This document shows positions 24,248-35,093 of a stretch of DNA of 64,000 bases, piece by piece. The notes beneath the pieces were generated by a model that searched no databases, was not told the origin of the DNA, and was given only the letters and a program-made list of their open reading frames with translations. This DNA is from Hydrurus foetidus (taxonomy: Eukaryota), in contig UYFQ01000032.1 in assembly GCA_900617105.1 (NCBI GenBank), positions 310,001 to 374,000 of the forward strand. Direction: 5' to 3'. Position 1 is the stretch's first letter. Every line of letters begins with the position of its first letter. The position numbers were made by a program, and so were the translations under genes.

Positions 24248-24274
24248 CCATTTGGTGCCGGAGCCGGTATCGAA
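24248..24274 (+). repeat. Distal att site (copy of the tRNA-Leu 3' end)
   Basis: CCATTTGGTGCC-GGAGCCGGTATCGAA versus CCATATGGTGCCCGGAGCCGGGGTCGAA at 34995-35022. Confidence 0.85.
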
Positions 24275-24517
24275 AATCAGGCTGTAACCCGCATGAATAC
24301 TAGGTTCCGGTGAATCAACTTTAAAAAGTACCGTAATAAGTACCGTAAAAATGTTTTGTGACCCCCTTGCGAGGGTTCGTATGGTCTGATTCTATGCCCA
24401 CAGGAACCCCATGCTCGCATCAAAACCTGCGGGGACAGCTGGCCGATTTGTTAATGGGGGGAACCACCGGGTTTTCAGGCATCATCGTATACGGGTATCC
24501 CGTACAATCACCACCCC

Positions 24518-24814
24518 ATGTACACCGTCATCGAATCCCCCGTCTTTCAAAAGCAGGCCGTGAAGGTTTGGGATGAAGCCGGGCGTTTTGCCTTCATCGA
24601 CTGGATCGCAAAAAACCCGATGGCGGGTGACGTGATTCCCGGTGCTGAAGGTGCGCGGAAAGTACGCTGGGCGGCTTCCGGGCGTGGCAAGCGCGGCGGC
24701 GCTCGGGTGGTTTACTTCAACTTGTCCGCACAGGGCGTGGTTTATTTGGTGACGGTCTATATCAAAGCCGATCAAGCCAACATCCTGCCCGGCGAAATTA
24801 AGGAGGTGGTTTGA
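24518..24814 (+). CDS. RelE/HigB-like type II toxin
   Basis: NPMAGDVIPGAEGARKVRW-GKRGGARVVYF-YIK pattern; toxin-first gene pair. Confidence 0.88.
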   Translation: MYTVIESPVFQKQAVKVWDEAGRFAFIDWIAKNPMAGDVIPGAEGARKVRWAASGRGKRGGARVVYFNLSAQGVVYLVTVYIKADQANILPGEIKEVV

Positions 24815-24815
24815 T

Positions 24816-25124
24816 ATGGATATTGAAAAAGTAGCCAAGGCCATTGAGGCAGATGCTGGTTTTGTGCTGCCTGACCTTCGCGAGGCTCTGGCACAGGCTC
24901 AAGCGGGCCTTGGGCGAGTCACCACACCAGAGCAAATACTGCTACGACAAGCGCGGACAAAAACAGGGCTATCGCAGCAAGCGTTTGCCCAACGCATCGC
25001 CACCTCGGTAGCCACTTTACGCGACTGGGAACAAGGGCGGTTCGTGCCACCGGGTGGCGTGCTGTGCCTGCTGCGCTTGATCGACAAACATCCTGAATTG
25101 GCCGCTGAACTCGAAACCGCCTGA
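24816..25124 (+). CDS. Xre-HTH antitoxin
   Basis: GLSQQAFA-VATLRDWEQGR HTH; starts 1 bp after the toxin stop. Confidence 0.88.
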   Translation: MDIEKVAKAIEADAGFVLPDLREALAQAQAGLGRVTTPEQILLRQARTKTGLSQQAFAQRIATSVATLRDWEQGRFVPPGGVLCLLRLIDKHPELAAELETA

Positions 25125-25655
25125 TTGCAGGTCTACCGCATCGCCATAAACCCCTTGGTCTATGAGCCGCCCACCTCATAGACCTCATAGGGGCTACGTG
25201 TTTGCCGCCGTGACCGTAAAGCCCTCGCGCCCGCGCGTACATCTCGGTGCGCCGCTCTGACAGCGTGGGATTGAAGGGACTGGGGTGTAACCAGGAGGTG
25301 TAACTACTCTGCTGCACCCTTACGCCATTGAAGGACTTCAGCCCCCACCATGAATGCGTTGGCTTCTATGATTTGCCGCTCAGTTGCCACTCTTGATGCG
25401 GAAACTGCCTTGGAAACCTCGCGTCTGGAAACCGCACGGCAATCCGTCGTTCGGGATGGTGTGCGTCAAACCTGCCTATTGAAACTTACGCAAAACCCTT
25501 TTGCGAAGATGTGCAAGTCTGTCGCAAATTGCAGCAAAAGTAAGCATTTTCCATTTCCTCAAAATGAAAGCACATGAGGAAACTTCAGCATTTTTTAGCA
25601 TTTCCCACGCGGAACACTCAGGTTTTTGCAGGTTTTCTCAGGTGAGCAAATATGC

Positions 25656-26114
25656 TCAGCCCCTGAAGTAGTCACACCGGTGCAGCACGGCCAGCACCGC
25701 CATACCTCGGGTGCAACGCCCATAGCTCAGCCCCCGGCATTCTTGGCAGTGGCGGCGATCATCTTGCTCACGGTCACGCCGGTTCAGCGTATCGGCCAGC
25801 CGGTGCGCAGCGTCCAGCCCCATTCCTTTGTCAGTGAAGCGGGCCGTTCGCACTGTGAAGGTGTCCAGCTCCACCGCGTTCATGGCGGTGCTGTGTGGCC
25901 AGCACCAGCGGTCAGGGTCTGGTTTGATGGCTGGGTCAGCGTCTTTGGGCGATGCTGTGGGGTCGTTTGCAGCCCCCTCCCTTTTTTGAATATGCTCAGG
26001 GTACGACCCTACAAAACCTACGAAACCCCCATTTTGAGGTTTTGTAGGTTTCGTAGGGTCGGTTTCAGGGGCATCCTGACTTTTCAGACTTTGAAGGCGT
26101 GCCAGCCAATTCAT
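25656..26114 (-). CDS. Satellite hypothetical protein overlapping iterons; C-terminal CxxC
   Basis: ATGA-coupled to the primase; PTKPTKP/GFVGFVG is encoded by inverted DNA repeats; CQEC-C-C. Confidence 0.6.
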   Translation of the reverse strand: MNWLARLQSLKSQDAPETDPTKPTKPQNGGFVGFVGSYPEHIQKREGAANDPTASPKDADPAIKPDPDRWCWPHSTAMNAVELDTFTVRTARFTDKGMGLDAAHRLADTLNRRDREQDDRRHCQECRGLSYGRCTRGMAVLAVLHRCDYFRG

Positions 26115-28573
26115 GGCGAAACTTTCACCGATGCCGTCATTGCAGCCGGGTTGATGGCGTAGCGTTCGCTGGGTCTGCCACCTGTTGGGCCGGAATGCAC
26201 GACCTCACGGCGCAACCAATCGTAGTCGGCCAGCACCTCAGCCGCTTTGCGCACCGCCTCGGGGGTGGTCAGCTCAGCCCAGCCTTTGACAGCGATCATG
26301 CGCGGGGTGAAGCCGTCCAGCACCACACCATCCCGGTCTGTCAGCTTGCCCGCTCTGATTTTGGTCAGCAACGCCCTTGCCCCCGATGTTTCAGGCGTGA
26401 CCGCTGCCGCGTAGAGCCTGTCTGCATGGGTACGCAGGTACTCACTCCACGCCAGCGCACGCATCAACTCACGGGCATGAACCACTTGGCCGTTGTCTGG
26501 GGTGTCAATGTTGGCGAACACTAACGCCAGGGCGGGGATTAGCTTGCGGTACTTGGCGAGGTGGCTTTCCATTGCGGGGTGGAGTTCACCGCCTTGGAGT
26601 TCTTGCTCGAAAGCGGTACGCCACTCCACAAACAAGGCTTGAGCCTCGGGGCTGAATCGCCATACATTGGCCTCGGTGTCGCTCGCTGGGGCAAGGTTGG
26701 CCAGCCGCTCGAATACCGCCCATGCTGTGGTCTTGGCGGGTGTGTCGGGCCATTGGTCAACGTGGACAAATCCACCCCCCGTGTCGGGCCACACGGTCAG
26801 GCTGAAGCGCTGCAACAAGCCATCATCGGCGCTGCCACCGGCCACAGCATCCCGCACATAGGATTGAATGCGCCCCGGTTGAATGCCGCCGATCATCGCC
26901 AGACACACGCGCGGAATGTGCAGGGTGCCACGTGCGATGCGGTCAAAAGTGTAGCCCTGATTCCCGTCATAGCCTTGCAGGTAGAAAGACCGCGCCCCTT
27001 CCTGCCCTTGCTTGTCCATGCCGGTCAGCAGGCCGTAGAGTTCATCGCGGTAGCTCAGGGTGCCCCACGGGTTCGCGGTCAGTATTTCACCCAGCTTTTC
27101 CACGGTGGCATCGTTGACGATGTAGCGCCGGGCCAGGGGTTCCTCGGTGGTGGCTGCGGGTTCCAACAGGGCACGCGCTGCAAGGGGGTCTTTGACGGCG
27201 AGCGCTTTGGCCTTGCCTGCCCGCTCTGCGTTTTGCAGCTCGGTGACTTTGCAGTCCAGTACCCACGCCTCATGGGATTCTTTGTGGCGCTCGAACTCTG
27301 CGCTTTGCAAGCGGTGCAAGGGTTTGAGGGCTTCACTCAGCGCCGGGGATTTCATCGCGCCGGGTCTGCCCACAATCAGCCCCCAGAGGTTGGGGGTGAC
27401 TTGCCAGTCGTCGCGCTCTTTGGGGTGAACCACGGCTTTGGCACCGATCAGGCTGGACAAGGCCACCACCGCGCCCACGGCGGCAAAGTCTGGGGGGCAC
27501 TGCATACGGTGTGCAATGTCCAGCACCCAGCCCCGCAATGCCTCGGGCAGCAAATCGGCATGGAAGGCCATCACCGGGAGTAGCGCCGTGGGTAGCGGGG
27601 TGGGTTCTGGCCATGCTTGCAATGGGTTTGCAACAGGCTCCGCACTGAGTGCAGAATTACCAGCCCCCCATGCTGGCCGTGCAGCCCCCATGCACTGCAC
27701 GACAGCCCCAGCCCCGGCGAGCTGGTGCAGGTCGTTGAAGTCGGTGGCCTTGTCGGGGCGGTCTTCTCCAAACAGGGGGGTGGCGATCAAGCCATTCACG
27801 GCGTGGGCTGCTGCGCTTGCTTTGGTCATGCCTGGGTTGCCCTCGGTCAGGTGGTCGTCGTCTGCGGCTATGCACAGAGTCAGGGTGGGGTACTTGGCTT
27901 TCAAGGCGATGGCGACGGCTTCCAAGTTGCCCGCGTTGAAGGTCACGGCCACGGCGTGCTGTGTGGCTTCAAAGATGCTGGCACCGGTGGCGAAGCCTTC
28001 GCACACGACCAACATCCCGCCAGTGGGTTTGCCTATGGCGTGGTAGCAGCCTTTGACCCGTCCACCAGGGTGAAAGCGCTTGCTGCCATCGGGTGCGATG
28101 GTTTGCAGGCTGTGCAGCTTGCCCGCTGTGTCGCGCATGGGAATCAGCAGCGTGTCACCGAATACCCGCACACCGTGGGGCTGGATACCTTTGGTAGTCA
28201 GGTAGGGATGCGCCGTGACCAGCTCAGCGTTTGCCCACAGCCGCGCCACGGCTTCGCGGGCCTGCTGGTGCTGGGTGGCTTTGTCGGTTTCGCGCTGAGC
28301 CTTCATGGCCTGGGTGCGCACGCGGTGGGCTTCGCGCTCGGCCTCGGTCATGTCGTTGTCGGCCTTGCTGCACCAGGGCACCGTGAGGGCAGAACGCCAG
28401 TCCCCAAAGGCACCGGCGGCGATGCCATCAGTGTGCAGGATGTACCAGCCGGTTTTATCCGGGCGTGTGTCGGTGCTGAAGCGGTGCAACTTGCCATCAT
28501 CAATGAGGGCATCGGGCGGGGTCAGTCCAGCGGCTGCTATGGCGATTTGGAAGTGTTCGGCGGGGTTACTCAT
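26111..28573 (-). CDS. TOPRIM primase fused to DUF3987/YfjI-type helicase
   Basis: VCEGFATG and AADDD TOPRIM motifs; GRPGAMKS Walker A; DELYG; DGLLQRF. Confidence 0.9.
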   Translation of the reverse strand: MSNPAEHFQIAIAAAGLTPPDALIDDGKLHRFSTDTRPDKTGWYILHTDGIAAGAFGDWRSALTVPWCSKADNDMTEAEREAHRVRTQAMKAQRETDKATQHQQAREAVARLWANAELVTAHPYLTTKGIQPHGVRVFGDTLLIPMRDTAGKLHSLQTIAPDGSKRFHPGGRVKGCYHAIGKPTGGMLVVCEGFATGASIFEATQHAVAVTFNAGNLEAVAIALKAKYPTLTLCIAADDDHLTEGNPGMTKASAAAHAVNGLIATPLFGEDRPDKATDFNDLHQLAGAGAVVQCMGAARPAWGAGNSALSAEPVANPLQAWPEPTPLPTALLPVMAFHADLLPEALRGWVLDIAHRMQCPPDFAAVGAVVALSSLIGAKAVVHPKERDDWQVTPNLWGLIVGRPGAMKSPALSEALKPLHRLQSAEFERHKESHEAWVLDCKVTELQNAERAGKAKALAVKDPLAARALLEPAATTEEPLARRYIVNDATVEKLGEILTANPWGTLSYRDELYGLLTGMDKQGQEGARSFYLQGYDGNQGYTFDRIARGTLHIPRVCLAMIGGIQPGRIQSYVRDAVAGGSADDGLLQRFSLTVWPDTGGGFVHVDQWPDTPAKTTAWAVFERLANLAPASDTEANVWRFSPEAQALFVEWRTAFEQELQGGELHPAMESHLAKYRKLIPALALVFANIDTPDNGQVVHARELMRALAWSEYLRTHADRLYAAAVTPETSGARALLTKIRAGKLTDRDGVVLDGFTPRMIAVKGWAELTTPEAVRKAAEVLADYDWLRREVVHSGPTGGRPSERYAINPAAMTASVKVSP

Positions 28574-28824
28574 GCGCGTTCTCCTGGGGGACTGGTGGTG
28601 GTGGCGTGGCTGTTTGCGGGGCGGGTGGCGGCTCTTTCGGCACTGGCTGCGAGGATGCGTAAAAGCCCGACAGCGCCCTCTGCCCGGTCTGCGAAGTCGT
28701 AGGCGTAATCCCAGTCGGGTACTGATTTACGAATCTCGGACAAGGCCACCAGGAGGGCGGATTCAGCCCGTATCAAGGCCAGGGCGAACTCGGTGGCGGC
28801 GGCGGGTGTGGCGGTGGTGTTCAT
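28570..28824 (-). CDS. Small satellite hypothetical protein
   Basis: ATGA-coupled on both sides within the replication operon. Confidence 0.65.
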   Translation of the reverse strand: MNTTATPAAATEFALALIRAESALLVALSEIRKSVPDWDYAYDFADRAEGAVGLLRILAASAERAATRPANSHATTTSPPGERA

Positions 28825-29198
28825 GCTGCACCGCCTTTCAGAACTGCCTGTGCGCAGTCCCCCAGCTCTTCAATGCTGGCCTGTGTTTGGCTGCAAGCGT
28901 GGGCTGCGTCCAGCAGCATCACTTGCATGGCCGTGGCGTGTTCGATGCTGAACCGGTCGTTGTTGATGGATATGCCTTGGTCGTTCAAATCCTTCGCCAG
29001 TGGGGCACACCATTCAGCTTTGGAACGAATCGCGTCCAGTGTGGCAATGGCCCCAAACATCCAGCTTGCAAGGCGTAGCGCCCCCTCAGCTTTGCCTATG
29101 TGCTCGTAGTCTGACAGCTCAAAAATGCCTGCCGTCAAGGTCTCCAATGTGGGCGTGGCTGTGGCGTTGGTGCCCGTGGGCGTGTTGGTCGTGCTCAT
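28821..29198 (-). CDS. Small satellite hypothetical protein
   Basis: In the operon; ends with KGGAA that supplies the RBS for the next gene. Confidence 0.65.
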   Translation of the reverse strand: MSTTNTPTGTNATATPTLETLTAGIFELSDYEHIGKAEGALRLASWMFGAIATLDAIRSKAEWCAPLAKDLNDQGISINNDRFSIEHATAMQVMLLDAAHACSQTQASIEELGDCAQAVLKGGAA

Positions 29199-29201
29199 GA
29201 T

Positions 29202-29432
29202 TTAAGCCCCCACCGTTGCTGCGTTTTGCTGCGTTCTGCTGCAAGCGTGCTTCAGCAGGGTCAGTGCCCGGTTCGCTTTGGCCGTGGCGGCGTGCAGATT
29301 GATGGCTGCACTGCCGGGGTGACGAAGGTGGTACAGCGCCATGCTCAGGGCGTTCTCGGCCAAGGCGTGGAGTTGGATGCTGTCGATGGCGTGGCCCGCT
29401 GTGGGCGTGATGGTGGTGTTGACCTGGGTCAT
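29202..29432 (-). CDS. Small protein downstream of the C4-like RNA (Icd/kil-like position)
   Basis: GGAG RBS before ATG 29432 (MTQVNTT...); the RBS overlaps the antisense target. Confidence 0.6.
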   Translation of the reverse strand: MTQVNTTITPTAGHAIDSIQLHALAENALSMALYHLRHPGSAAINLHAATAKANRALTLLKHACSRTQQNAATVGA

Positions 29433-29486
29433 GGTTTCTTCTCCGGAATGAGACTGAAAACCACCGTTTGCGTTTCTACGCGCATT

Positions 29487-29555
29487 GGGTGGGTGGGGTG
29501 TTAGAAACATGGATTCCGCCATGCGGCCAGCCTTGCGGACAAGCCCATCCCACCC
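29487..29555 (-). ncRNA. C4/P4-CI-like antisense immunity RNA
   Basis: 11-bp outer stem and two inner hairpins. Loop CGGAAU and bulge UUUCUA are complementary to paired sites both upstream and downstream. Confidence 0.75.
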
Positions 29556-29613
29556 GTAACCAGCGGCGTGCGCGTGACCAAAGGCCACACGTTCACCAAA
29601 ATTGGGGCGTGAT

Positions 29614-29635
29614 AAAACCCCACTTAAGGCGGGGG
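29614..29635 (-). terminator. Terminator-like hairpin after the upstream antisense target
   Basis: Minus strand reads CCCCGC-CTTAA-GTGGGG-TTTT. Confidence 0.5.
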
Positions 29636-29732
29636 CTGAGACCTCGGAATCAACGGTGTTTCTACGCACCATCCCTCTCGGGACGTGGGCAGTATAGCGG
29701 GAATGATGCCGCGTGAGGCTTGCTGAAACCAA

Positions 29733-29761
29733 TTGACGTTTAACGCCATGCGTTATACACT
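29733..29761 (+). promoter_or_regulatory. higBA sigma70 promoter with palindromic operator
   Basis: TTGACG-N17-TACACT; TAACGC-CAT-GCGTTA palindrome in the spacer; ATG 7 nt after the -10 box. Confidence 0.75.
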
Positions 29762-29768
29762 TTGCGTC

Positions 29769-30047
29769 ATGATTCAAAGCTTTAAATGTGCGGACACAAA
29801 AGCGCTGTTTGAGGGGCAAGTGGTGGCGCGGTTTGCCAATCTGAGCACGGTGGCGACACGCAAGCTCCAAGTACTGCACAGCGCCTTGTTGCTTATGGAC
29901 TTGCGCGTTCCGCTGGGAAACCACCTTGAGGCGCTCATGGGCAACCGTGCAGGGCAGCACAGTATTCGCGTGAATGACCAATGGCGCTTGTGTTTTGTGT
30001 GGACACCCACCGGCCCCGCAGCCGTTGAAATTATTGATTACCACTGA
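29769..30047 (+). CDS. higB: HigB toxin
   Basis: MIQSFKC-T-LF, DLRVPLGNHLEAL-GQHSIRVNDQWRLCF, EIIDYH. Confidence 0.93.
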   Translation: MIQSFKCADTKALFEGQVVARFANLSTVATRKLQVLHSALLLMDLRVPLGNHLEALMGNRAGQHSIRVNDQWRLCFVWTPTGPAAVEIIDYH

Positions 30048-30059
30048 AGGAGCTATTCC

Positions 30060-30389
30060 ATGACTACCACCACTGAAATCCCTGTCAACGGTATGCGCCC
30101 CATCCACCCCGGCGAGGTGCTGCGTGAGGAATTCATTACCCCGTTGGGACTGACCGCGCACGCCCTGTCGATGGCGCTGCAAGTCCCCGCACCTCGTATC
30201 AGTGAAATCGTGCGCGAGCGCCGGGCGATCACTGCTGATACCGCCTTGCGGCTGGCTAAGTACTTCGACACCAGTGTTCAGTTTTGGCTGAACCTGCAAA
30301 CTGACTACGACGTTGCTGTCGCACGCACCACCATGACCGCCGTCCTTGACCGAATCAGCCGCTGCGAAGGACTGGCAGCCCATGCGTGA
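30060..30389 (+). CDS. higA: HigA antitoxin
   Basis: HPGEVLREEF, RAITADTALRL and FWLNLQ motifs. Confidence 0.95.
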   Translation: MTTTTEIPVNGMRPIHPGEVLREEFITPLGLTAHALSMALQVPAPRISEIVRERRAITADTALRLAKYFDTSVQFWLNLQTDYDVAVARTTMTAVLDRISRCEGLAAHA

Positions 30390-30613
30390 CTTGCTGCGCA
30401 CGAATGTCCCAGCGGCATAGCCCCTGCAAATAACCCGGCTGGGGCTGCGCACCAGTTCTGCGTACCGGCTTTGCGTACCGTCGTTGTGCAGCGCATCCAC
30501 CAGCCCCCAAGCGTTCACCGTGGTGTTCAACACCGTGGCAGAATCAGGGCTGTAGTTGGTTTGCTTTGGGCCTCGGATGTTTGCAGCGTCCGGGGCTTTC
30601 GTCTTTGTGGGGT

Positions 30614-30904
30614 TCATGCTTTTGTTCCTGTGGTGTGGTGCAAAACGTAAGCGCCAACGCGGTGAACGACACCGGCCTCGGTCACGACCTCCATCCAATG
30701 CCGCTGAATGTCTTCACCCCGCTGGCGTAAGTCCTTGATGCGGGCGCGTGGGTCGTAAATGTCCAGGTGGCGCGATGCCTCCAAGCTGTTGACGAAGGGG
30801 AGTTCGCTCAGAGCTGCCTTCAAACGAATGCATTGGGTCGCGCCGGTCACGCCTTTGAAGCGATCGCGGATGGCGTGCAGGGTGTTGATTTTTTCGGAGT
30901 TCAT
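30614..30904 (-). CDS. Winged helix-turn-helix protein
   Basis: EASRHLDIYDPRARIKDLRQRG pattern, typical of satellite HTH genes. Confidence 0.75.
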   Translation of the reverse strand: MNSEKINTLHAIRDRFKGVTGATQCIRLKAALSELPFVNSLEASRHLDIYDPRARIKDLRQRGEDIQRHWMEVVTEAGVVHRVGAYVLHHTTGTKA

Positions 30905-30917
30905 GGTTTTTTCTCTT

Positions 30918-31280
30918 TCATGGCCAGCAGGCCAGTTTTTCCCGGATGTGGGCGATGGCCTGGGAGAACGTGCCCTCCCGGTAGCCGCCGTGGATGGTGT
31001 GAATCAGCGCCTGCCAGGGTTCGCGGCTACGGCGGTAGAACAGCAGCGGCTCAGCCCCGGCCTTTTGGCCTTGCTTGCAGGCTTGTTGCCACCAAGACGG
31101 GCGGGATAGCTTTTCGTGGCGTTTGCACTCGATAGCGAAGCCTTGCACCATCAGGCAGTCAGCCCCACCGGCGCGGGCTTGATCGACGTTGCGCCGTACT
31201 TCAATACCGAGTTCGTCTTGCAGCAGGCGGCACAGCTCACGCTCAGCAGCCGCGCCTTTGTTGCGTTGGGATGCGCCCAT
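30918..31280 (-). CDS. PD-(D/E)XK nuclease, Holliday-junction-resolvase-like
   Basis: KGAAAERE-GAD-IECK motif order; start at MGASQ (31313 is an alternative). Confidence 0.7.
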   Translation of the reverse strand: MGASQRNKGAAAERELCRLLQDELGIEVRRNVDQARAGGADCLMVQGFAIECKRHEKLSRPSWWQQACKQGQKAGAEPLLFYRRSREPWQALIHTIHGGYREGTFSQAIAHIREKLACWP

Positions 31281-31284
31281 AGCG

Positions 31285-31605
31285 TCAGGTGGTGACGGAT
31301 TTGAGGTGGGCATTGCGCAGCTTGGTAGCCGCTGGTTTGGGGTAGTCCGGTGGGGCTGGTGGTGCGTCCCCGGTCATTTTGCGCAGCCATTCCCGCACGT
31401 CACCAACTTTCCAGGCGCTCACACGATCAGAGAGTTTTACGGGCGCTGGGAAGGTCTTGGTTTTGACCTTGCGCCACAGTGTCGGGCCGCTGAATGGCAG
31501 TACCGGCGTGGCGTTGGGCCGCTTGGGGCTTTGAACGAGTTGGGACTCGCGGATGTAGGCACTGTCTGCCAGTGCGTCGAAAGGGGATATGAGTTGGGGT
31601 GACAC
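31285..31605 (-). CDS. alpA: AlpA-family regulator/excisionase
   Basis: LPFSGPTLWRKVK-FPAPVKLS-SAWKVGDVREW. Confidence 0.88.
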   Translation of the reverse strand: MSPQLISPFDALADSAYIRESQLVQSPKRPNATPVLPFSGPTLWRKVKTKTFPAPVKLSDRVSAWKVGDVREWLRKMTGDAPPAPPDYPKPAATKLRNAHLKSVTT

Positions 31606-31701
31606 GTTGCGCCTTGCTGTTTGAACAGGGGCGAGTGTTCGATTTTCGTGCTGTTAGTTGGTGCAATTGCCAAGCTGAATTGGCAATTGCCAGTGAACCC
31701 G

Positions 31702-32541
31702 TTATTTCATGCGGACTTCCAGCGCATCAGGAATTTTTTTCAAATGCTCTTCGATAGCACGCTTGGATACATGCGCTCCCAATTCTTCAGTTATCCCCTC
31801 AATGTAGAGTGCCACTTTACCCAGGCGGCTAGAGTCATCTAGCGACACATTTGCAGCTTTGGCCAGGGCCGCAATGATGGTCAGGAGTGTGTCCCGCTCT
31901 CGCTTGAGTAGGGGTTTTTCAGGTCTATCCCGCTTAGCTGAACGTCTATACGCCGCAAGCTCTTCATAAAGAGCCAATTCAGCTTCAGGAGTTCGATGGT
32001 TAGGCGAATTCACTCCGCCATACTGAGTAAAAACATTGTTCAATTCCTCCTGAAAATTCGGGGTTTCGGCTTTTCTTCTTTGATTTTCTGACTCCTCTAC
32101 GCCAGCATTCAGGATTTCATGCTCTTGGTTTCGATACTCAGTCCATAACTCACCCAGTTCAATTCGTCTAGCGGTACACCAAGCAGCAAACGCGGAATCT
32201 ACAACCCACGTATCGTCAAGATTCACACAATCATCTAAGGACGTTCTCAGCACAACAGGCTTTAGTTCGCCTTTTCCAAGGCTAAGACGTACCGCATCTG
32301 AGACTACTTTTATCGCTCGGCTCATTCCTCCTGTCGCCTCAATTCGGAAATAGCAGTGAACATTGCTGGTCTCGTGGAATGGATTAAGTTCACTATCCAC
32401 GTATTCGATGCCACACGCATTGCCACCGTCATCAATGCAGGCAATTCGAATGGCGGTGCTCAAACGTATGCAAATATCATCAAAATTATCAACTTGGAGG
32501 TAAAGCACCTCAATCGGATAGTTCAGGTTTACATCACCCAT
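31702..32541 (-). CDS. AT-rich hypothetical protein with HTH-like C-terminus
   Basis: 279-aa ORF; C-terminal ERDTLLTIIAAL-VSKRAIEEHLK; lies upstream of alpA. Confidence 0.7.
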   Translation of the reverse strand: MGDVNLNYPIEVLYLQVDNFDDICIRLSTAIRIACIDDGGNACGIEYVDSELNPFHETSNVHCYFRIEATGGMSRAIKVVSDAVRLSLGKGELKPVVLRTSLDDCVNLDDTWVVDSAFAAWCTARRIELGELWTEYRNQEHEILNAGVEESENQRRKAETPNFQEELNNVFTQYGGVNSPNHRTPEAELALYEELAAYRRSAKRDRPEKPLLKRERDTLLTIIAALAKAANVSLDDSSRLGKVALYIEGITEELGAHVSKRAIEEHLKKIPDALEVRMK

Positions 32542-32682
32542 TGCGTCCCCTGTCTCGCACCTGAAAAGAAAACCAGCGCCGCCGGGTCAGGGAGTCCCGG
32601 TGTTCACCTCGGGTAATTAGTCCGGGGCTAGGCGTGGCCTAAAACTGTTGCCAGCCGCGTTTCAAACGCGAGTGGTCTTCAC

Positions 32683-32874
32683 TCAATCCGGTAGCACTTC
32701 CCGCCCCACAGAAGGCATAGCGTCCCACGCTTGATCTATCGTCAAAGGGGCATCCCGCTGCATGGTCAGCAAATCGGCCAAACGGATAACTTTCCCCGCC
32801 TTGTGCTGCGCTATCGACTTGGCAAGATGCGCAGCGTTCGCAGGCGTGGACAGCAGGTACTCGGTTTCCGTCAT
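32683..32874 (-). CDS. Orphan YefM/Phd-like antitoxin fragment
   Basis: ETEYLLSTPANAAHLAKSIAQ resembles the YefM toxin-binding C-terminal helix; no partner toxin alongside. Confidence 0.5.
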   Translation of the reverse strand: MTETEYLLSTPANAAHLAKSIAQHKAGKVIRLADLLTMQRDAPLTIDQAWDAMPSVGREVLPD

Positions 32875-32978
32875 GGCGTGGCCTTTCGTGTGTTTCCAAC
32901 TTTCCGTATTCTGCATTTTTTGAGTGGGTGGCTACTGAGTGTCCACCCCTTCCCCCTGCACCGTGGTGAACCCATTCA

Positions 32979-33143
32979 GGGGGGGGTTTGTAGGTTTCGT
33001 AGGGTCGCAGTAGGCCCATATTCAAAAACACGGGGGGAGGTTTCGTAGCGTTCGTAGCGTCCCTCCAGCCCCATATTCAAAAGTACAGGGGGGTTTCGTA
33101 GGTTTTGTAGGGTCGTACCCTGGGCATATTCAAAAAAGGGAGG
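32979..33143 (+). repeat. Three ~55-bp imperfect direct repeats carrying GGTTTYGTAG iterons
   Basis: Each unit is a G-run, two iterons, then CATATTCAAAA. Unit 33089-33143 matches 25976-26030 inverted at 54/55 nt. Confidence 0.85.
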
Positions 33144-33593
33144 TACGCCATGAAGTTCATCAAATCAATGGTTACTCCATATTGGTAGTTAATAGTTTGC
33201 TATCAATATAGTAGTAAGTGAAAAAATGAGTCCTACGCGAGAGGAAACCCCCCGTGAGAAAACGACCCCGTGAGGGTCAATCTGGGGATAGGGGTCTGGG
33301 AAATTTCCTGATATGCGGAAGTGAAAATTGAGCTAAACCTACGGTCTTTAGCCCCTGACCCTCCAAGGAATGAAAGGGCATACCCCCATTTTGATTATTT
33401 CTACAGGGGGATTTAACCTGCGAATGGGAAAACATGCGGTCTAGGCAGGGTCGATTCGTTCAGGGATTTACACCCCCCTACACACCACGCGGTGGGCGAT
33501 GGCTGGCCTGTAGCTGTGGGGCTTGGTCATGCTGCCCGGTGTAGCGCAGGCTGTTAGCAAATGTTAATGTTCGCGCCAAAGTAGCGGTCACGG

Positions 33594-34823
33594 TCACGCT
33601 GCCTGGTGTAGCGGTATCACTTCAACCCCGGTGCGCAGCTTGTCCAGGTAGTCCGCCCACCGTTGCATCATCTCCCGGCGGGCTGGGAGGTGGGCGGTTC
33701 TGTTGTAGGCGCGTCCGTTGGCATCTTTGACTTGGTGGGCGAGCTGGTGCTCGATCAAGTCCACACGTTCCCCCTGCACTTCGTCCATGATGGTTCTGGC
33801 CATCGCTCGAAAGCCGTGGGCGCTGTGAACTTCCTTGCTGTAGCCCATGCCGCGCAATGCTGCGTTCACGGTGTTCTCACTCATGGGGCGTTCACCCGTG
33901 CGCAGGCTGGGGAAGATGTAGCGGCCATGCCCGGTCATGCGGTGGATGCTGCGCAGTATCTCCACGGCTTGGGCGGCCAGGGGCACCAGGTGGTCAACCT
34001 TCATCTTCATCTTGGTGCCAGGGATACGCCATTCCGCCGTATCGAGGTCAACCTCTGCCCACTCAGCAGCCCGCAGTTCACCAGGACGCACGAACAGCAG
34101 GGCGGACAACTTCAGCGCGGCCACGGTGTAGGGGTGGCCGGTGTAGTCGAAGATGGAACGCATGAGTTCACCGGCTTGCTTTGGCTCAGTGATGGCGGGG
34201 AAGTGCTTTTCAGGGACAACCGACAACGCGCCACGCAAATCGGCGGTTACATCGCGCTCTGCCAGCCCCACAGCGACAGCGAAGCGGAACACCTGCCCAC
34301 AGGCTTGTTTGATGCGGTGGGCGCTGTCGATGGCTCCACGGGCTTCAACCTTGCGCAGTACGTTGTCCAGAACATCACGCGGGCCTATGGTGGCGATGGG
34401 CATGTGACCCATGAAGGGGAACACGTCTTTGACAAACCACGTCTCGATCTTGTCTTGCGTGGTGCTTTCGCGGTTTGCCGCTGTCTTGGCTAACCAGTCA
34501 CGGGCGACGGCCTCGAAGGTGTTGACCGCTGCGTCAGCGATGGCCTGTCTGTCTTGCTTCTTGGCGGTGCTGGGGTCTGTGCCATTTGCCAGCAGCTCGC
34601 GGGCTTTGTCGCGCAACTTACGGGCCATCTTTAGCGTTACCGCCGTGTCCGAGTAAACCCCAAGGGCCAGCGTTTTGCGCTTATCGGCGTGGGTGTAGTC
34701 CATGCGCCAGTATTTGCCCGCAGCCTTCACCAGCAAATACATCCCCCCGCCATCGCTGTGTTTGTCCCCTGCGGGCTTGCCGCTGTGCTTGAGCGTCTTG
34801 ATCGCGGTATCTGTCAGTGCCAT
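33594..34823 (-). CDS. P4-type tyrosine integrase
   Basis: Arm-binding N-terminus (DGGGMYL-KYWR), VRPGEL, HGFR, QLAH and AYNR motifs. Confidence 0.96.
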   Translation of the reverse strand: MALTDTAIKTLKHSGKPAGDKHSDGGGMYLLVKAAGKYWRMDYTHADKRKTLALGVYSDTAVTLKMARKLRDKARELLANGTDPSTAKKQDRQAIADAAVNTFEAVARDWLAKTAANRESTTQDKIETWFVKDVFPFMGHMPIATIGPRDVLDNVLRKVEARGAIDSAHRIKQACGQVFRFAVAVGLAERDVTADLRGALSVVPEKHFPAITEPKQAGELMRSIFDYTGHPYTVAALKLSALLFVRPGELRAAEWAEVDLDTAEWRIPGTKMKMKVDHLVPLAAQAVEILRSIHRMTGHGRYIFPSLRTGERPMSENTVNAALRGMGYSKEVHSAHGFRAMARTIMDEVQGERVDLIEHQLAHQVKDANGRAYNRTAHLPARREMMQRWADYLDKLRTGVEVIPLHQAA

Positions 34824-34999
34824 CGCTGCCCCTGTTGCGGTATCTGCTTTTACGGTATCGGGCTGATACCGTCAGAAATACCGTTAAAACTTTGAGCTTT
34901 GATGATACCGAGTGAGATGGTGTGAGGCAAAGAAAAACCCGCTACGCTGGGGAACGTGCGGGTTATTGATACTGTGTGAGGTGGTCTGATATGACCATA

Positions 35000-35093
35000 T
35001 GGTGCCCGGAGCCGGGGTCGAACCGGCACGCCCCTTATGCAGGAAAGCGGCGGATTTTAAGTCCGCAGTGTCTACCAATTTCACCATCCGGGC
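35000..35093 (-). tRNA. tRNA-Leu(TAA)
   Basis: GCCCGGATGG...anticodon TAA...GGTTCGA...GGGCACCA; long variable arm. Confidence 0.95.

Follow-up and report, generated by a model that had tools for sequence, protein, structure and literature searches.

The 64,000-nucleotide stretch of DNA analysed here (hereafter the window) very probably carries a short antisense RNA gene of the C4/CI type, whose two key segments are complementary to sites on its own transcript and which would likely serve a satellite-like island as its RNA immunity repressor. Immunity based on RNA has been recognised in a few enterobacterial phages. The analysis establishes the RNA structure, the two-key code, a layout like that of P1 and P4, and the host island. 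The C4/CI-type reading had been put forward in an initial annotation of the window, and it is supported by covariation, by the resemblance to the P1 immI layout, by the placement of one site on a ribosome binding site and by an operon that runs to a primase.

A three-helix RNA and its leader

The C4-type RNA occupies positions 29488..29555 of the minus strand, as delineated by covariation on 75 sequences. Its body of 65 nt (29555-29491) comprises three helices and is followed by ACC. The main stem, P1, pairs 29555-29546 (GGGTGGGATG) with 29500-29491 (CACCCCACCC) and contains one A.C mismatch, P2 (29545-29525) carries a GCAA loop, and P3 lies at 29523-29508, all on the minus strand. P2 is built from a 4-bp stem (GGCT/GGCC), an internal loop and a CC-GNRA-GG cap, which reads CC-GCAA-GG in the window. 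Two antisense segments are exposed by this fold, one in the P3 loop and the other in the junction. Every motif position given in the initial annotation was recovered on the minus strand, and some of the pairings drawn there were revised. The main stem has a different conserved register (GGGTGGGATG/CACCCCACCC), and in place of a proposed hairpin CTTG-TCCG-CAAG, whose CTTG/CAAG stem is fully paired in 9 of 127 homologs, the conserved element is CC-GCAA-GG on the 4-bp stem.

Homology to the 76-aa gene downstream of the RNA yielded 40 loci, and a pattern made of scaffold letters only added 16 viral and at least 120 metagenome loci. Of the 167 pattern matches listed, 129 distinct RNAs remained once 17 with fewer than 8 of 10 main-stem pairs, 6 with short flanks and 15 duplicates had been removed. 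Two of these (L076 and L166) match none of their own sites and look like chance matches; they are retained in the set of 129 and omitted from a set of 127.

When 75 RNAs are aligned, 98.3% of the cells pair and two-sided changes are present at 11 of 21 pairs. This covariation exceeds that of all 500 shuffles and all slid controls, and RNAalifold yields approximately the same fold as the covariation structure. Because the search pattern dictated the constant pairs of inner P1 and P3, these carry no evidential weight; it placed no constraint on P2, the loops or the sites. Within P2, the inner 2 bp are paired in all 127 of 127 homologs and the outer 4 bp in 124, and the loop conforms to GNRA in 126 of the 127. 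The RNA begins with GG at its 5' end, and ACC directly follows P1 in 116 of 127 homologs. The A.C mismatch in P1 is found only in the window copy, with A-U at this position in 74 of the 75 aligned sequences. Because the window RNA alone folds no better than its own shuffles (z -0.50, with mixed registers) and an Rfam search at E<=10 returned nothing in 29200-30000, including with the C4 and c4-2 models, the case for structure rests on the homologs. Comparison with the Rfam C4, c4-2 and c4-a1b1 models, which the initial annotation had offered as a check, gave no match at the element.

The likely leader promoter is marked by a -10 hexamer, TATACT (29691..29696, minus strand), the sole copy in the window, which lies 20 nt before the hairpin that displays the first upstream site. 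A -10-like hexamer is located at 20-23 nt in 69 of the 99 homologs that have one. At the expected -35 position there is no TTG in the window copy; TTG is present there in 61 of the 99 homologs and missing in 38. Promoter calling returned no promoter on the minus strand at the switch. The initial description of the switch as complete is not borne out for the promoter, which has no recognisable -35.

A first leader hairpin with a GNRA loop, GTCCC-GAGA-GGGAT, is predicted at 29671..29684 (minus strand). A terminator-like hairpin with a short U tract is located at 29613..29637 (minus strand), at the position of the P4 seqA/IsrK terminator. This putative leader terminator, initially described as a terminator-like hairpin between the upstream sites and the RNA, coincides with a conserved helix: an alignment of 119 leaders shows 6 bp with compensatory changes plus a U tract, as judged by a loose rule without a shuffle control. 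A terminator-like hairpin with T4 was called at 29634-29618, one of 7 such sites compared with 5.3 in shuffles, a count that alone is not significant. Between the terminator and the RNA, a variable spacer hairpin (29565..29597, minus strand) is seen as a predicted fold only.

Keys, sites and their covarying code

Following the naming in the P1 GenBank record, the junction segment is called a' and the P3 loop b'. Key b' (29512..29518) consists of the P3 loop CGGAAT (29518-29513) and the closing C, and key a' (29502..29508) is the junction GTTTCTA, of which TTTCTA occupies 29507-29502. Upstream of the RNA, site a1 (TAGAAAC, 29664-29658) lies in the loop of a GGTG/CACC hairpin (29655..29670), whose helix is the consensus of 119 aligned leaders, and site b1 (GATTCCG, 29645..29651, with ATTCCG at 29650-29645) is the complement of the P3 loop. 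Downstream, site a2 (TAGAAAC, 29478-29472) lies in the loop of a TGCG/CGCA hairpin (29469..29484), a consensus helix in 124 downstream regions, and site b2 (ATTCCG, 29449-29444) is in the loop of a small TCTC/GAGA hairpin (29440..29453), of which the CTC/GAG helix is conserved. All of these elements are on the minus strand. As had been proposed, the downstream target overlaps the GGAG ribosome binding site: the last G of b2 is the first G of this SD (29444-29441). The same arrangement recurs in the 109 homologs with an exact b2, where b2 ends on the first G of GGAG or GGAA in 108 and the start codon is 10-13 nt past b2 in 105.

The ordered pair TAGAAAC..ATTCCG within 40 nt is present in the 64 kb only at the two flanking places and in the RNA's own complement, and 20 million nt of second-order Markov simulation produced 1 match, a rough figure given the single match. 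Among the 129 RNAs, exact cognate sites are found for a1 in 120, b1 in 102, a2 in 94 and b2 in 109. Non-cognate exact matches amount to 0.3% (a1) and 2.2% (a2) of 12,708 pairs, and to 2.1% (b1) and 1.1% (b2) of 16,216 pairs. Loop/target covariation, named in the initial annotation as a check, proved strong: all four sites are exact in 72 of 129 cognate cases (the window copy among them) versus 1 of 16,402 non-cognate pairs. The other 57 of the 129 RNAs lack one or more exact sites. With one RNA retained per b' code, 41 of 65 match both sites, compared with a maximum of 6 in 100,000 permutations, and with one RNA per a' code, 12 of 17 do so, compared with a maximum of 7 (100,000 permutations). 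For 92 rows anchored independently of the keys, four free loop positions are complementary at frequencies of 0.95-0.98 versus 0.29-0.39 expected. The transcript thus carries two covarying site pairs, with the downstream site over the ribosome binding site of the first gene.

There are 65 b' codes, 17 a' codes and 97 combinations in the set of 129 RNAs. The key combination of the window is unique in this set, and one other RNA (L103) fits the four window sites if G.U pairs are allowed. Some natural codes have a single key in common, for instance b' in L085 and a' in L097. Fifteen groups with identical scaffolds all differ in code, which is not taken as evidence because it is largely a product of de-duplicating by RNA sequence. 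One locus (L072:601-803) has two RNA copies in tandem, separated by 148 nt, whose loops differ and whose sites are incomplete, and at another (L194, G278:C1:2373350-2373447) an extra hairpin is inserted in P2 and the cognate sites are kept by inspection.

From these sequences, we infer transcription, processing, repression in trans and immunity along the following lines. The leader promoter would generate a precursor transcript, from which a stable RNA of ~68 nt is likely released through cleavage by host RNase P at the GG that begins the tRNA-like P1 stem. The ends of the RNA, a GG start and ACC in 116 of 127 homologs, are compatible with release by RNase P. Acting in trans, a' would pair with the loops of the a1 and a2 hairpins, and b' in the P3 loop would pair with b1 and b2. 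Upstream binding would promote termination at the hairpin in the leader, and downstream binding would mask the SD of the 76-aa gene, blocking its translation and, by polarity, shutting down the coupled primase operon as well. Only elements sharing the same two-part code would be silenced. On induction, translation of an eta-like frame from the alpA operon would override the block, as in P4.

We also considered that the pairings might be real and yet operate in cis only, as long-range leader folds of an attenuator that makes no diffusible repressor. The keys and their sites do reside within 230 nt of one transcript, and alternative cis folds exist, given that 114 of 127 homologs have, 18-42 nt downstream, a stretch exactly complementary to the CCAC that ends P1. 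However, two sites compete for each key and both cannot pair in cis, and for a near-constant scaffold to bear 97 codes requires triple changes, which would not be favoured in a cis switch. The 5' GG and 3' ACC ends also are as in processed P1 C4, and the related sRNA-Xcc1 was characterised by Northern and RACE as a discrete RNA of 88 nt (PMC2996969). We regard a purely cis-acting leader as improbable and favour an antisense RNA that acts in trans.

The host island, its operon and homologous loci

The RNA is located in an island of 10.7 kb (24253..35022, minus strand) bounded by att copies at 35022-35000, the 3' end of a tRNA-Leu, and at 24274-24253. Relative to the tRNA end, the distal copy carries two substitutions and one deletion. 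The minus strand of the island carries an integrase gene (34823-33594), an int-alpA RNA (32638-32559; Rfam, 36.5 bits) that is also frequent in related loci, and alpA (31605-31285); the island also has genes for a RusA-like nuclease and an HTH_39 winged-helix protein. A higB-higA toxin-antitoxin pair (29733..30389, plus strand) is divergent from the switch promoter, and higBA is directly upstream of the switch also in L010, L016, L034 and L202. A second toxin-antitoxin pair, RelE-like plus HTH, is at the distal island end (24518-25124). The tRNA-inserted integrase, AlpA, the primase and the flanking att repeats are those of a P4-like satellite or PICI-like element. No capsid/terminase, helper-hijacking or packaging families were detected among the window ORFs scanned (16 with Pfam, 11 with PHROGs and 10 with NCBIfam), of which several fall in no family.

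The first gene of the operon that the switch would control encodes 76 aa (29202..29432, minus strand), has 23 homologs and is the positional counterpart of P1 icd and P4 kil; its product has no similarity to Icd or Kil. This protein has no Pfam, NCBIfam or convincing PHROG match and falls in unnamed Atlas clusters. The downstream operon (26111..29198, minus strand) continues with 125-aa and 84-aa genes that have no assigned function, and then an 820-aa Toprim/DUF3987 primase-helicase, the genes being linked by overlapping stop and start codons. The earlier proposal that the RNA precedes a primase operon is borne out by this arrangement within an integrase-AlpA island.

An eta-like open frame of 471 codons (29202..30617, minus strand) runs through the whole switch into the 76-aa gene. 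It starts with an ATG (30617) overlapping the HTH_39 stop codon, crosses higBA antisense and is open across the entire pair. The chance of such a frame is ~0.002 for the parts outside higBA, multiplied by 0.23 for the in-register antisense part. No homolog was found for its N-terminal 72 codons. An Ash-family protein encoded over the RNA was considered and rejected, as the frame has no Pfam, PHROG or NCBIfam match. An upstream frame open for >330 nt is in-frame in 32 of 134 loci (7 of which reach the locus edge), compared with 4 and 4 for the other frames; the read-through frame is kept by about a quarter of the homologous loci and absent from three quarters. P4 eta is described as coupled to an alpA homolog, reading through CI into kil and preventing termination (PMC10111431), and by analogy the frame in the window may provide read-through control.

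The features of the island and leader also bear on whether the family works as described and the window copy itself is weakened or decaying, with a poor promoter in an inactive island. Such decay would fit the A.C mismatch unique to the window, the lack of a -35 and the two substitutions and one deletion in the distal att copy. However, all four sites of this copy are exact, as in only 72 of 129 RNAs, TTG at -35 is also missing in 38 of 99 homologs, and the integrase, alpA and primase frames are intact. Two oligo-dT RNA runs yielded zero reads here and two contig sets showed no excision joint, neither result being informative about activity. We consider it unlikely that the window holds a failing copy, and favour a working repressor.

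First-gene homologs come from Rhodoferax, Polaromonas, Limnohabitans and other Burkholderiales, which suggests that the island host likely belongs to the Burkholderiales. Three loci (L001, L030 and L034) have a canonical long Rfam C4 upstream of the same first-gene family and are the sole C4 matches among the 40 loci, indicating that long and short switches are interchangeable before one gene family. Most other first-gene loci have the short RNA and no Rfam match at gathering score. A new covariance model, applied with only 32 candidates scored per genome, was positive in 8 of 151 genomes from a sample of G001's family. In a corresponding sample of its phylum, 3 of 151 genomes gave a match, namely G001, G278 and a marginal one without the scaffold (E 0.001). 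The switch region yielded one weak blastn match in phages and one weak match in plasmids. Across 15 loci, where a Pfam scan covered 106 of the 215 ORFs called, an integrase is upstream in 9 and a primase-type gene is downstream in 5. At two loci (L024 and L027), the first gene follows a host GntR-like gene and only the tail of the switch is left, apparently a truncated island remnant.

One genome (G037) has six copies, each with a different code, and none of the non-self pairs among them matches at all four sites. One copy resides in an integrase-alpA-rha island. The other five (L195-L199, at C6:132314-132387, C6:145646-145719, C6:50537-50610, C1:489518-489591 and C1:547675-547748) are 0.9-kb cassettes, 70-82% alike, each with a promoter, an RNA switch with its own code, a gene of 40-50 aa and a gene of 158-179 aa. 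The 158-179 aa proteins are 73-79% identical and belong to no Pfam or NCBIfam family. No full-length integrase or primase was found among the ORFs scanned near the five cassettes, one of which is near a 136-aa integrase-like fragment. Replicon immunity therefore cannot be the role of every copy. The distinct codes of these co-resident copies were rejected as evidence of selection, because random pairs share both keys in only 0.7%. The cassettes adjoin defence-like cargo (TIR-cNMP/JAB, IrrE, GT4-conflict and HipA).

Comparison with known RNA families

By score, the window RNA is outside Rfam C4, c4-2 and sRNA-Xcc1. It has no match to C4 (RF01695; cut-off 45 bits, P1 stem of ~17 bp) or c4-a1b1 (RF03163), and does not reach c4-2 (RF02944, cut-off 41 bits), a motif considered to be probably a remote homolog of an RNA already known (PMC5737381); in five genomes that carry the element, no c4-2 match falls on it. 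P1 C4 and P4 CI both score well on RF01695, P4 CI with 74.9 bits, and P4 seqA has 60.8 bits on IsrK (RF01394). The new model assigns 6.3 bits to P1 C4, nothing to P4 CI and 10-16 bits to three canonical C4 loci.

The same topology is present in sRNA-Xcc1 (RF02221), which has a short P1, a P2 with an internal loop and GNRA cap, a short P3 and a junction of 6-7 nt. Its loci have a similar leader, and the window P2 is ~16 nt shorter. The sRNA-Xcc1 model matches 9 of 15 relatives at 30-39 bits (cut-off 53) and does not match the window itself. In the reverse direction, the new model located the RNA in 18 of the 30 sRNA-Xcc1 loci searched (E<=1), with a best score of 25 bits. The two RNAs are alike in helix topology and reciprocal model similarity, and the scores stay below the family cut-off. 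We would place the window RNA in a new short subfamily close to sRNA-Xcc1.

Cognate sites were also evaluated in sRNA-Xcc1 loci (L203-L232), which are the best match of 30 of the 41 genomes with one, across the phylum. In 22 parsed loci, matches are observed for loop-upstream in 17, junction-upstream in 21, loop-downstream in 13 and junction-downstream (5 nt) in 17, compared with permutation maxima of 9, 11, 7 and 16. Fixed windows applied to all 30 loci give 12, 28, 14 and 19 versus permutation maxima of 11, 18, 8 and 15. One sRNA-Xcc1 locus aligns with phage DNA in which anti-repressor genes follow immediately downstream, which is the P1 arrangement; blastn of one locus against plasmids gave no match. 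Judged from these sequences, the sRNA-Xcc1 family, which is not in the Rfam C4 clan, looks like C4-type switches. Literature passages that name sRNA-Xcc1 and C4 together, as distinct from the unnamed motifs of large screens (PMC10690425), were found to contain no equation of the two.

In the accounts consulted, sRNA-Xcc1 is treated as a trans-acting or virulence-linked sRNA (PMC2996969, PMC12189769, bioRxiv 2025.06.18.660453, bioRxiv 2020.03.17.996009). The window RNA could likewise be a trans-acting sRNA against host mRNAs, its flanking matches being secondary, given that its nearest Rfam model is sRNA-Xcc1, for which trans action and predicted host targets are described (PMC12189769, PMC2996969). 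However, the keys track the element's own four sites, the ordered two-site pattern is present nowhere else in the 64-kb window, and sRNA-Xcc1 members show their own flanking cognate sites. Host targeting is very unlikely in our judgement, and we favour a self-targeting immunity RNA.

We tentatively suggest, as a possibility that is open to considerable doubt, that the window RNA, sRNA-Xcc1 and C4/CI belong to a superfamily of two-key RNA locks much larger than Rfam depicts, with the short form supplying ~100 orthogonal codes in Burkholderiales and with stand-alone 0.9-kb trap or decoy cassettes. If so, many islands could share one cell through orthogonal immunity codes, the 0.9-kb cassette could be a code-gated trap or decoy rather than a replicon repressor, and sRNA-Xcc1 would be a misread immunity RNA and not a host-directed virulence sRNA. 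The compact form, missed by C4 models, heads the replication operons of many betaproteobacterial islands. Its natural library of ~100 key/lock codes makes specificity rules testable with natural alleles, such as whether one key or both are needed, how many mismatches are tolerated and what role each site has. A 65-nt orthogonal translation switch is also on offer, and many sRNA-Xcc1 annotations deserve to be re-read as self-targeting switches.

The C4/CI antisense mechanism is described in print (PMC5320573, PMC4825925, PMC10111431, PMC5499578), as are key variation behind P1/P7 heteroimmunity, processing by RNase P and the occurrence of C4-like RNAs in several copies (PMC5320573, PMC5499578, PMC4825925, PMC3632133, PMC8198154). 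C4-like sRNAs described in Acinetobacter baumannii include several with different keys per genome, as in G037, but these RNAs match Rfam C4 and their proposed targets are the host or incoming phage rather than their own flanks (PMC5320573). Like the window, P4 has an integrase/AlpA/primase satellite setting, and the place of its terminator, between the upstream sites and the RNA, is taken in the window by the terminator-like hairpin. Its eta, coupled to a gene upstream, is described as reading through the RNA into the first gene (PMC10111431), as the eta-like frame does in the window. In contrast, P4 CI and seqA match the C4 and IsrK models whereas the window matches neither, and neither capsid-size nor late-activator genes were detected in the window island.

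Compared with phage P1 C4, the window RNA is shorter (65 nt plus ACC versus 77 nt), its P1 stem has 10 bp rather than ~17 and its P2 has an internal loop. Phage P1 immI controls icd-ant, whereas the window switch heads a gene without an assigned function and a primase. These differences aside, P1 C4 has a' in the junction and b' in the P3 loop, as does the window RNA. The P1/P7 immI regions also share the order of elements, which runs from the -10 through a hairpin, a1 in a hairpin loop, b1, the hairpin at the terminator position (terminator-like in the window) and the spacer to a three-helix RNA extending from GG to CCACC, followed by a2 and by b2 on the SD of a small gene.
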